48,078 nt of DNA from a virus. Its lineage: Duplodnaviria; Heunggongvirae; Uroviricota; Caudoviricetes. The DNA lies in the IMG/VR virus record IMGVR_UViG_2529293223_000014. One strand, written 5' to 3'. Within the stretch, counting starts at the first letter, position 1. Each line of letters opens with the position of its first letter. Position numbers: made by a program. Of the stretch, positions 27,001 to 30,000 are shown piece after piece.

Positions 27001-30000
27001 GGCAATGCGCAAACCAGCCATAACAATCGACATAATCACTGCGCCCAGCGGCGTATCTCCACGCCACCAACTTTGTAAGAGTTCCAGTAAGTCAGGCCAG
27101 GAATGAGGAGCATTGTGCATTTTCATACTTCCCACCTCCGCCATTACGGGGTGTTGTTGAAAGGCGGGCCCTGCGTATACACCCGTAGGATTGGGTTATG
27201 AGCCGTCCTTCGGTGGGCCCTGAATACAAAAAAAGTTCGCCATAGCGAACCTTGTTAAATTTGTTAAAAAAGGAGGTTATTTAACATAATGTACGTTATA
27301 GGAACCACACGATCCCCGCTCGCAATAGATTTGCGATGAAAGGCCTATTTAATCAACTTAAGTGGTCCAGAATGACGAAATTCGAGTGAATAAAAGGTGC
27401 ATAAAAAAGGGCAAAAACTGCATAGCGTTTTTTCGCAGCGAAAGCCCTGTTTTATTAACTTTTCCCCAGAATGGGGCAATAAAAAAGGCCCCCTTGCGGA
27501 AGCCTCTTCGTGATGAACTGTTTTCAACGGATATCAGGCTAATCGGCTTTTTGGAATTCCACAACTATTTTTTATCTTACCTTGATGCCTGATGCCGTCA
27601 GATGTTTACGACAGTCCTGAATACCTTCGTTATAACCCGCATCGTAGAAGCTATCCGGCTTTGCCTTCAGCGCAGGAAGCGTAACGCTGGTAGCTCTTCG
27701 TTCGGCCAGAACACCTGCCTGAAAGAGTGTCCACATCAACTGAACTGCTGAATCACAGTAAGTAACATCTTCACTGTACAATTCTCGTTCAATCCTGATG
27801 CCAAGTTGAGCCTTCATTGATGCGCCAATATTACCTTTGACCTGCAACGACAGGTCTGGGTACCTCTGTTCCATGAAGCTTTCAAATCTGTTGCGAACGC
27901 TGATCAGAGCCATCTGGTTCCCTTACGTGATTGATTGCTGGATATTATGCCGCCGAGCAGCTCCTACGCAAAGTCCTGATAGCCTGAGGCTTTGACTGAA
28001 CCGACTGATCCATTTCGAGCACCACATCCAGCATGGCTAAGCAACCGTCAATAAATCCCTCTGCCGCCTGAAGCCTCTTCAGAACGTGGGTGTGAGATAC
28101 GCCGAGCTTCTCACCCATCGCCCGCACGGGCATGGCCTGGACGTAATGCCACTCAAGGAGCGTGCACAGATACGGATCTTTTTTCTTCAGGCAGCTCATA
28201 GCGGAGTTGATGATAAGACCGTCATTGTCACTGCATTTCAGCCTTCCAGACTGCGTCGCGGGTAGCAGATTCTTAAACCCGGCTGCAACAGGAGGAAAGT
28301 AGACGCTACCACCTTCACTCGCAACCCAGCCACCCCAGCGCTCTAAAACCTGTTGAATATTACGCATAGCTCTGACCTCTACGTTTTGCTACGTTTGGAA
28401 ATTTTCTACTACTCAATACTCGTTGAATGTCAGGTGGCCGCTAACACTGACGTTTGGCCCGTCAGATAACACAAGCTGGAAATTGTCGTCGCAAACAGAG
28501 CAGCCGAGGTCAATAACTACCGTTTTGTCGTGTTTATGCGCTCGCATGGCGACATCGCGAATAAACACGCTGTTACTAGCGCAGCGTGGGCAGGTAATTT
28601 CGTTATTTCCGTCGATATGATTTTTTAATCCTGAAACTTTCATGTTGTTTACTCCAGCTAGTTATTTGCAAATATTTGCAAGTTAATTTCCGGGTGGCAG
28701 TTAGGTGGCACTTAAATAGCTATCTGCCACCTCCTGAAACGCACGCCACGTAAGGTGCCGGGCTATTTTGGTGGCGGGTGGCAGATAGTTTTAGTTCTAT
28801 ATACATAAGAGATCGCATAATACATAAAATATAAGTTCTCGCGTATATAGTTTTAAATTCTATTGCCACCTGCCACCTTTTCACCGCTTCCAATTGATTT
28901 AATTGGTCTTTACCTGGTGGCAGTTAGTCGTTTATCTGCCACCTTACTGCCACCTTTTTACAATCCAGATTGCAAAATTTCGCAATTTTTATATATTTCA
29001 CGCAATTCTTCGTTGCTGAAATCGGTATTTTTTACAAGTAACCACATGCGAACAGTCATGCCGTCCACTTTTAGTTTCACTGCTTCACGTTTTGTTCTTT
29101 CTTTCAAAACGCGAGTAATATGCTTCTGGTTAATTTCTACATCCATTCCTGCTTCTGCCAGTATTGCGTTAACAATTTGTTGATAAGTCATTGCTGGCAC
29201 AGGCGGATTATCCAGGATTTCAATAAGAGCAGCCTCCACATCGCTCTTATTGCTTTCAATCATCAGAAGGCGTTCTTTCGTCTCGGGGGCGCGCTGCCAG
29301 TTAAAGCGAGACAGGTCAACGCCCATCAGATACCAGTACACCTGGGCGATAAAGTCGCTGTCGCTTAGCGCACCGTACAGGCTGGCGTAATGCTCTTCAG
29401 TTGCGGCGAAGTCAGGGCCCCCCAGCACAGCGATACGTCGGTCTTCCTCTGGCAGCGCCAGCGCATCAAAGTGATTGGTGTAGAACAGAAAGCCAGTGTA
29501 TATATCCATCGTTTTTTTACTGCCATATTTGCGGTTCACTTCAAACCGTGGTTCTGTCAGCACATCGCGGATCTTATCGTTCACCTCATACCGCTTATCA
29601 TTTTCGCGCACCTCGTCAATGGTGCATAGAAGCGTATTGTACAGATAGTCATGGAACTGGTTATCGCACAGGATCTTCATGCGAGTACGAGCACAGTTCC
29701 ACGGACCAAGCACGCGCTCCATTAACTGGCTGACCCATCCTCTGCCCGTACCATGTGCGGTAGCCACATGCAGAATAGAAATCGGGCATCGACGCTCCGG
29801 ACGCTGAACCATCCACCCCAGACGGGCGATGAAAAACTCGCGCTGCCAGGCATCAGGTACCAGATACGCCATATGATTAAGGAACGTGGACACCTTACTT
29901 GTATCCGCTGTACGTGGATGCTCAGGCATATAAAATTCGTTTATCTCAAACCGCCCGTCGAAACGCTCGATAATACGTCCCGCACCGGGCTTATAGCCTG

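Follow-up and report, generated by a model that had tools for sequence, protein, structure and literature searches.

In the staphylococcal pathogenicity islands (SaPIs), the C-terminal winged helix of the Rep protein binds 6-12 iterons lying immediately downstream of the rep gene; the iterons on the two sides of an AT-rich centre are oppositely directed, and two hexamers are thought to self-load there (PMC9371898). The alpha protein of P4 unites a primase, a superfamily 3 (SF3) helicase, and, at its C-terminus, an origin-binding winged helix in one polypeptide (PMC2777425, citing Yeo et al. 2002). In ORF904 of the Sulfolobus plasmid pRN1, a prim/pol domain is followed by an SF3 helicase and then by a winged helix at the C-terminus; replication needs a cis region directly 3′ of the gene (PMC2777425, PMC4234260), and no iterons were found there (PMC2777425). 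Here, I analyzed a 48,078-nucleotide stretch of Caudoviricetes DNA (IMG/VR record IMGVR_UViG_2529293223_000014; hereafter, the window), which is an Escherichia coli prophage. A 314-bp spacer (28644-28957) between the stop codon of a 753-residue primase-helicase open reading frame (ORF) and the start codon of a 76-residue ORF houses an array of ten short iterons. The array region at 28693-28954 is probably an origin of the self-loading initiator-helicase type, serving a temperate E. coli phage that encodes its own replication enzymes.

The resemblance to the SaPI origins extends over several features. The proposed initiator combines an SF3/D5-like helicase, which SaPI5 likewise joins to a primase, with a winged helix at its C-terminus, the ten iterons lie just downstream of the ORF, and the centre is AT-rich with five sites per side in opposite directions. 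Several specificity types exist in both systems, although the match between initiator and iterons comes here from sequence comparison and carries a linkage caveat discussed below. In contrast to the SaPIs, the element is an enterobacterial temperate phage and not a Firmicutes satellite, the Pfam content (Prim-Pol plus DUF5906) is different, the words are 8 bp in length, the ten-site layout is strict, and the dyad symmetry is exact. A specificity that tracks the wing and is swapped as a cassette of about 450 bp was not found described for SaPIs in the available parts of the SaPI sources. The phmmer search of the Protein Data Bank (PDB) returned no SaPI chain, and the likeness to the SaPI5 PriRep (7ola, 7om0) is a fold-level match with only 12-14% identity in the structure alignment. 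By analogy, the window system would work like a SaPI origin, while it is not a member of the SaPI Rep protein family. The original prediction had set the position of the array, abutting the 3′ end of the gene, against that in lambda; the position is not unusual for this class and is the arrangement described for SaPI Rep/PriRep (PMC9371898) and pRN1 ORF904 (PMC4234260).

The ten GGTGGCAG-type sites span 262 bp, five of them flanking either side of the AT-rich core (Table 1). Nine to ten copies of a 12-bp motif in both orientations had been predicted. The copies are real and number ten, but the unit is shorter. Among the ten sites, GGTGGC (positions 1-6) is invariant, A stands at position 7 in 9/10, and G stands at position 8 in 8/10, while positions 9-12 follow a loose W-T-A-G. 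Thus, the conserved unit is an 8-mer, not a 12-mer. The 12-mer GGTGGCAGWTAG occurs within the array in four exact, two one-mismatch, and two two-mismatch copies, and the rest of the window holds just five dispersed two-mismatch matches. The GGTGGCA heptamer has 18 copies in the 48 kb, half of them (9/18) inside the array, the tenth site being degenerate (GGTGGCG, at 28770). The whole-window expectation is 7.5, and 0/100 shuffles attained 18. A blind clustering scan took the commonest 7-mer on either strand in every 300-bp window; the array locus scored 9, the runner-up locus 4, and block shuffles at most 4. When the motif was searched for elsewhere in the prophage, no other cluster appeared, and the remaining heptamer copies were singletons.

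The five site pairs are all mirror-symmetric about exactly 28823.5, a regularity that the original prediction had not described. In the direction of the primase-helicase gene, the layout is >> < (45 bp) >> [AT core] << (45 bp) > <<, and the edge of the array (iteron 1, 28954) is 3 bp from the stop codon of the gene (28958-28960). The outer site triplets give two arms of 39 nt with 82% complementarity, separated by 184 nt. These arms might be taken for the inverted ends of a non-functional, MITE-like (miniature inverted-repeat transposable element) palindromic insertion, and repeats might also arise by chance. However, the array is found in one copy per genome and always beside the gene, with none on plasmids or elsewhere; its layout is conserved across genera despite a concerted change of the word; and chance is excluded by the heptamer count and the clustering statistics. 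Such an explanation is scarcely credible.

Relatives were collected as six annotated loci (E. coli genomes and one phage record) plus 85 loci from species-representative genomes and IMG/VR. Thirty-two loci, from E. coli, Serratia, Izhakiella, and IMG/VR viral contigs, have the same type of C-terminus, with 99-68% protein identity to the window. In these 32 relatives, the site offsets from the stop codon are kept within about 4 bp (3, 14, 35, 80, 87 / 174, 181, 227, 248, 259), and the orientations >><>><<><< are fixed. The word itself is not fixed. Five iteron words were found among the relatives: GGTGGCAG, GGTGACGG, GGTGACAG, GGTAACAG, and GGTGTCAG; phage vB_EcoM-606R2 has the GGTGACGG array and E. 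coli B771 the GGTAACAG array. Within each array, most or all sites have the same word, and the remainder are one base off. A concerted change at ten sites is expected for the targets of one protein with altered specificity.

The AT-rich segment of about 70 bp that had been predicted between the iterons is present as a 75-bp core at 28789-28863 (22.7% GC versus 50.6% for the window), which is proposed to be the unwinding element. It contains an inverted repeat, CTATATAC (28797-28804) and GTATATAG (28843-28850), which is centred on the same dyad point and has CGCGAGA adjacent to it. In an alignment of 15 distinct arrays, this repeat is conserved independently of the iteron word, as would befit an element on which the conserved helicase and primase domains act. 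As a single strand, 28770-28877 folds into a long hairpin (z = -5.1), as implied by the symmetry of the array. DnaA boxes (TTWTNCACA) were not found in or near the array; their absence fits a self-loading initiator. No intrinsic terminator was found in the spacer, and an Rfam search of 28300-29300 at a permissive threshold gave no match.

Three palindromes accompany the array. Two of them, TTGCAAATATTTGCAA and its mirror-position partner TTGCAAAATTTCGCAA, are TTGCAAA-type sequences on either flank, and both are among the word-independent conserved elements of the 15-array alignment. The former is possibly an accessory site. The conservation of the latter may reflect coding, since it lies inside the last codons (C-E-I-L-Q) of the primase-helicase gene. 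TTGCAA-N4-TTGCAA was considered as a CI/Cro-type operator and rejected: beyond the flanking pair there is a single poor match, a total not above chance, and TTGCAAA is not over-represented in the window. The same half-site recurs at 36797-36887, between the DUF2815 and BRO genes, where two TTTGCAAA palindromes (36820-36827 and 36842-36849, 22 bp apart) follow a terminator-like hairpin and precede a near-consensus promoter, TTGACA-17-TATATT; the TTTGCAAA word is not over-represented overall. The third palindrome, CCAATT-N5-AATTGG (CCAATTGATTTAATTGG), was correctly noted in the original prediction. It is probably not functional, because the relatives do not keep it.

The 753-residue protein is the proposed initiator. 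Pfam detected Prim-Pol (PF09250) at residues 65-185 and DUF5906 at residues 488-595. In the phmmer search of the PDB, the helicase region of NrS-1 was the sole sequence relative. An AlphaFold2 model (mean predicted local distance difference test score, 78.7) was compared by Foldseek, and the matches were NrS-1, monkeypox virus E5/vaccinia virus D5, African swine fever virus PrimPol, and the SaPI5 primase-helicase (7ola/7om0). The C-terminal domain was modelled with helices at residues 660-670, 679-690, and 698-709, a strand at 676-678, a hairpin at 714-727, and a final helix at 736-752, that is, as a predicted winged helix.

Is the iteron word related to this domain? The E. coli proteins are almost 100% identical over residues 1-690, and when the word differs, the differences are concentrated at residues of about 690-750. 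A mutual-information test of each protein column against the word (23 unique proteins, one word class having a single member) gave the highest normalized values at residues 722 (0.91), 715 (0.76), 721 and 723 (0.73 each), and 725 (0.67). The mean is 0.04-0.10 over residues 1-710, including 0.07 for the helix at 698-710, and 0.14 over residues 728-753, where columns 732 and 745 reach 0.6. These covarying residues occupy both strands of the wing hairpin. The word can be predicted from residues 722/723, its variable bases pairing with them as follows: TV or TL with GGCA, VY with GACG, GY with AACA, AQ with GACA, and TN or TQ with GTCA. The same pairings occur on protein backbones of 99%, 80%, and 68% identity. 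The putative recognition helix is almost constant and does not vary with the word; it may match the constant GGT..(A/G)G frame, with the wing reading bases 4-7.

The unit that differs between phages is small. When L002 (E. coli CAU16175) is compared with the window in 50-bp steps, the identity is 96-100% at 27900-28699 and 29100-31199 but 57-94% across 28700-29099, which covers the array and the last ~50 codons of the gene; the diverged block is about 450 bp. The array changes along with the C-terminus while the downstream region is unchanged in L002, and it stays with the primase-helicase gene where the downstream region has been replaced (L004, L006). The L002 gene (3160-5428) is frameshifted with its array still intact, and the gene of L011 (Erwinia tracheiphila) is also frameshifted; these two modules look like decaying copies.

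The position of the spacer upstream of the 76-residue ORF and the Q gene raises the question of whether the repeats are operators for another binder, such as Cro or CI, the 76-residue zinc-ribbon-like protein, or a host factor. Weak promoter-like matches in the AT core (5 versus 2.0 expected) and the TTGCAAA-type palindromes, which flank the array and also lie at 36820-36850, upstream of a strong promoter, would be in line with this. The neighbouring genes nevertheless do not covary with the word. An identical downstream protein, WP_000868571, adjoins GGC-type iterons in L001 and GAC-type iterons in L002; WP_000034494 is beside GGC in L004 and GAC in L005; and the same Cro-like protein, WP_000016208, is found with AAC in L003 and GAC in L005. 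No covariation was seen for CI either, and different downstream proteins adjoin the same word. A host factor cannot account for five words in one host species. The only coding sequence within the variable cassette is the C-terminus of the primase-helicase. An antisense ORF at 28863-29183 (plus strand, 106 residues) was considered as a hidden binder encoded by the cassette, but it is probably not a gene because it is open in only some relatives. Binding by a protein other than the primase-helicase is thus very unlikely.

A different possibility is that the C-terminal domain of the primase-helicase binds the sites mainly as a transcriptional roadblock or autoregulatory operator gating the 76-residue ORF and Q, with the origin located elsewhere. 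The array does lie inside one early transcription unit running from the primase-helicase gene to Q; transcription from the early promoter passes through it, and ten occupied sites could impede RNA polymerase. The covariation with the wing fits any role that needs binding by this protein. However, a roadblock needs no 75-bp core of 23% GC at the dyad centre with an inverted repeat that is independent of the word class, which is a hallmark of an unwinding element. Moreover, the design corresponds feature for feature to SaPI origins that were defined by experiment (PMC9371898), and the window offers no other iteron cluster as an origin. I regard a roadblock with a distant origin as unlikely, while roadblock and origin roles are compatible with each other.

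Short-repeat arrays in both orientations are also known at plasmid centromeres and some pac sites. A pac or partition function is nevertheless highly improbable for this array. Genes of the ParA/ParB type are absent from the annotated prophage, whose integration depends on a tyrosine recombinase, and the gene for the terminase small subunit (25163-25735) is 3 kb away. In addition, the array covaries with the primase-helicase and stays linked to it in mosaics that have acquired another late region, such as the Stx2b prophage L006.

The conserved layout, the concerted word change, the wing covariation, and the inheritance of the array with the 3′ end of the gene all agree with the originally predicted origin bound by its initiator, as far as computation can tell. 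Several points weigh against this reading. The fold scores in the structure comparison are modest, and the mutual-information test has the small sample given above. The recognition helix is the usual DNA reader in winged-helix proteins, and its invariance across words makes the reading mode uncertain. The wing codons and the iterons are merely 85-400 bp apart, so the covariation could also result from co-inheritance of one block; such linkage leaves unexplained why ten sites share one word, yet it weakens the specific tie to the wing. Other AT-rich spots exist in the prophage (e.g., near 36200 and 32221), although without repeat clusters. Finally, no experiments on binding, melting, or origin activity were found in the literature for this system or its close relatives.

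From the above observations, I infer binding, hexamer assembly, melting, and origin firing in the following manner. The replication set of the phage would comprise the PrimPol-SF3 helicase, the family A DNA polymerase, and the DUF2800 and DUF2815 proteins. The 753-residue protein would act as initiator and replicative helicase, its C-terminal winged helix binding the ten 8-bp iterons. Other SF3 helicases are hexameric. Because five sites per side mirror each other about the core centre, two oligomers, presumably hexamers, may assemble in opposite orientations, one on each flank. They would then melt the conserved AT core and self-load onto the single strands, after which the N-terminal PrimPol domain would prime and the phage polymerase would extend, resulting in bidirectional replication. 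The wing hairpin, through residues 715 and 721-725, would be the main seat of specificity, and the wing and the iterons may be exchanged between phages as one cassette of about 450 bp, giving at least five replication-specificity types.

The coordinates of the features are collected in Table 1.

Table 1. Features of the putative origin locus. Positions are those of the window; iterons are numbered in the direction of the primase-helicase gene.
Feature	Position	Strand	Sequence or remark
Primase-helicase gene (753 residues)	28958..31219	-	N-terminal Prim-Pol (archaeo-eukaryotic primase, AEP); D5-like/DUF5906 SF3 core; C-terminal winged helix
C-terminal domain coding region	28961..29242	-	Residues 660-753, predicted winged helix
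Wing beta-hairpin, codons 712-727	29039..29086	-	EAVKLKVDGMTVRMWL; proposed specificity determinant
Specificity cassette	28690..29100		Array and last ~50 codons; differs between phages with near-identical flanks
Palindrome TTGCAAAATTTCGCAA	28970..28985		Mirror-position partner of TTGCAAATATTTGCAA
Iteron 1	28943..28954	-	GGTGGCAGTAAG
Iteron 2	28932..28943	-	GGTGGCAGATAA; 11 bp from iteron 1
Iteron 3	28916..28927	+	GGTGGCAGTTAG; opposite in direction to iterons 1 and 2
Palindrome CCAATTGATTTAATTGG	28890..28906		CCAATT-N5-AATTGG; in the window, not conserved in relatives
Iteron 4	28866..28877	-	GGTGGCAGGTGG; directed at the AT core
Iteron 5	28859..28870	-	GGTGGCAATAGA; 7 bp from iteron 4, abuts the AT core
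Iteron 6	28777..28788	+	GGTGGCAGATAG; mirror of iteron 5
Iteron 7	28770..28781	+	GGTGGCGGGTGG; position 7 degenerate, mirror of iteron 4
Iteron 8	28720..28731	-	GGTGGCAGATAG; mirror of iteron 3
Iteron 9	28704..28715	+	GGTGGCACTTAA; mirror of iteron 2
Iteron 10	28693..28704	+	GGTGGCAGTTAG; mirror of iteron 1
Palindrome TTGCAAATATTTGCAA	28666..28681		Flanks the array; partly conserved form in relatives
76-residue ORF	28413..28643	-	Zinc-ribbon-like; directly downstream of the array; no Pfam match

How does this locus differ from other well-known origins? The P4 origin has short repeated octamers, and two separate cis regions, ori and crr, are needed; the P4 iteron word is TGTTCACC, which differs from the word in the window. 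The present protein shares with P4 alpha the order of primase, SF3 helicase, and winged helix, and both belong to enterobacterial elements with short repeated sites. In contrast to the DnaG/Toprim-type primase of alpha, the N-terminus here is an AEP Prim-Pol domain (PF09250), and there is a single iteron cluster, with no second, crr-like cluster found in the window. The domain order and the cis region directly downstream of the gene are shared with pRN1 ORF904, while pRN1 is archaeal and its cis element is a downstream region, not an iteron array.

In lambda, the ori is inside the O gene and has four 19-bp sites, each palindromic, and the O protein, which is not a helicase, needs P and the host DnaB. 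Lambdoid phages have replication-specificity types in which the DNA for the recognition domain is tightly linked to the iterons. The window resembles lambda in having iterons beside an AT-rich segment in an early rightward operon downstream of cro. Unlike in lambda, the array is intergenic, and no O or P homologue is annotated in the prophage. The contrast with lambda drawn in the original prediction is smaller than supposed, since in both cases no more than a few hundred bp separate the target sites from the DNA that codes for their recognition element. In SV40 and papillomaviruses, inverted sites about a dyad centre direct two SF3 hexamers of large T or E1 for bidirectional unwinding. This is a working analogy for the inverted sites here; the origin-binding domain of large T/E1 differs in fold and lies N-terminal to the helicase, and these proteins belong to eukaryotic viruses and have no primase fusion. 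Iteron plasmids (RepA/pi/TrfA) have tandem direct iterons of 17-22 bp on one side of an AT-rich region, plus DnaA boxes. In contrast, the present words are 8 bp and mirror-arranged, there is no DnaA box, and no match was found in the plasmid collection.

The window corresponds to a prophage that, in the E. coli O121 genome L001 (NZ_CP119441.1; 100% identical over the studied region), is integrated next to yfhL. A LexA-like CI gene is divergent from a Cro-like helix-turn-helix gene, and then the primase-helicase gene, the array, the 76-residue ORF, the Q antiterminator gene, and the lysis, terminase, and head genes follow. The other arm has genes for DUF2800, HNH, and DUF2815 proteins, the family A DNA polymerase, an SNF2 protein, and the integrase. 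An unrelated 96-residue ORF replaces the 76-residue ORF both in relatives that share the origin type and in relatives that do not; the latter ORF is thus an exchangeable gene in a nin-like position. The Q ORF of the window (27945-28367) is intact. In L001 (1-20100), the insertion sequence IS1 cuts the Q gene, and copies of IS600, IS421, IS66, and IS1 disrupt the DUF3383 genes of the tail region; therefore, the L001 copy is a degraded prophage. L006 (E. coli STEC435, NZ_CP129348.1, 1-2500) has a GGTGGCAG-type primase-helicase/origin cassette that is 96-100% identical, followed by a late region with a different Q gene, a tRNA-Arg gene, and the stx2b A/B genes. Thus, the replication module also serves a Shiga toxin (Stx)-converting phage.

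A comparable design was found in two further enterobacterial families (L044-L092 with L012-L014, and L040-L042), whose proteins have a Prim-Pol N-terminus, a VapE-type helicase, and a different C-terminus. The Prim-Pol N-terminus is 60% identical to that of the window protein, and 96-97% identical in L040-L042. The stop codon is followed at once by eight to ten class-specific words, arranged as >><>>>[AT-rich]<<<. The words include GGTTCCAC, CTGTACC, GTAACCAC, GACAACC, ACCACCT, and TACTCAAC, with a mirror design around a ATATATATA centre; in the larger family (proteins of 722-730 residues), CCCCATATATATATATAAGTCG is conserved at the centre. Here too, the word changes together with a wing-like segment.

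No description of this origin was found in the literature. The array is unannotated in E. coli genomes, and the only close phage records are four unpublished vB_EcoM genomes in which the gene is labelled 'hypothetical protein'; other phage matches are below 60% identity or partial. How non-lambdoid Stx phage types replicate has been stated to be unknown (PMC8951638), and the papers classifying the replication regions of Stx phages made no mention of origins or iterons and described the replication proteins as unstudied.

The general picture of SF3 initiator-helicase function is unchanged by these results; what they add is a strict ten-site dyad layout and a specificity series of five words carried on a small cassette. 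They provide a testable candidate origin and a putative initiator-recognition element for a family of temperate, non-lambdoid phages found in E. coli, Serratia, and Izhakiella. Judging from source protein names, the family is also present in Salmonella, Citrobacter, Klebsiella, and Xenorhabdus, and one member carries stx2b. The comparative data predict the residues that set specificity and the bases that are read, which may be of use for typing prophage replication modules and for building orthogonal replicons. A bolder and rather doubtful extension is that the ~450-bp cassette is portable, that residues 722/723 and bases 4-7 form a two-residue code, and that the variable bases are read by the wing and not by the recognition helix, as in RFX-type winged helices. 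If so, cassette exchange would divide the non-lambdoid prophages of enterobacteria, Stx2b-converting phages among them, into groups that are incompatible with or insulated from one another, and these groups would shield the phage initiator from hijack by co-resident prophages or satellites. As part of the same tentative proposal, since the initiator gene and Q lie on either side of the array, occupied sites might also set the timing of expression of the late genes and hence of the toxin.

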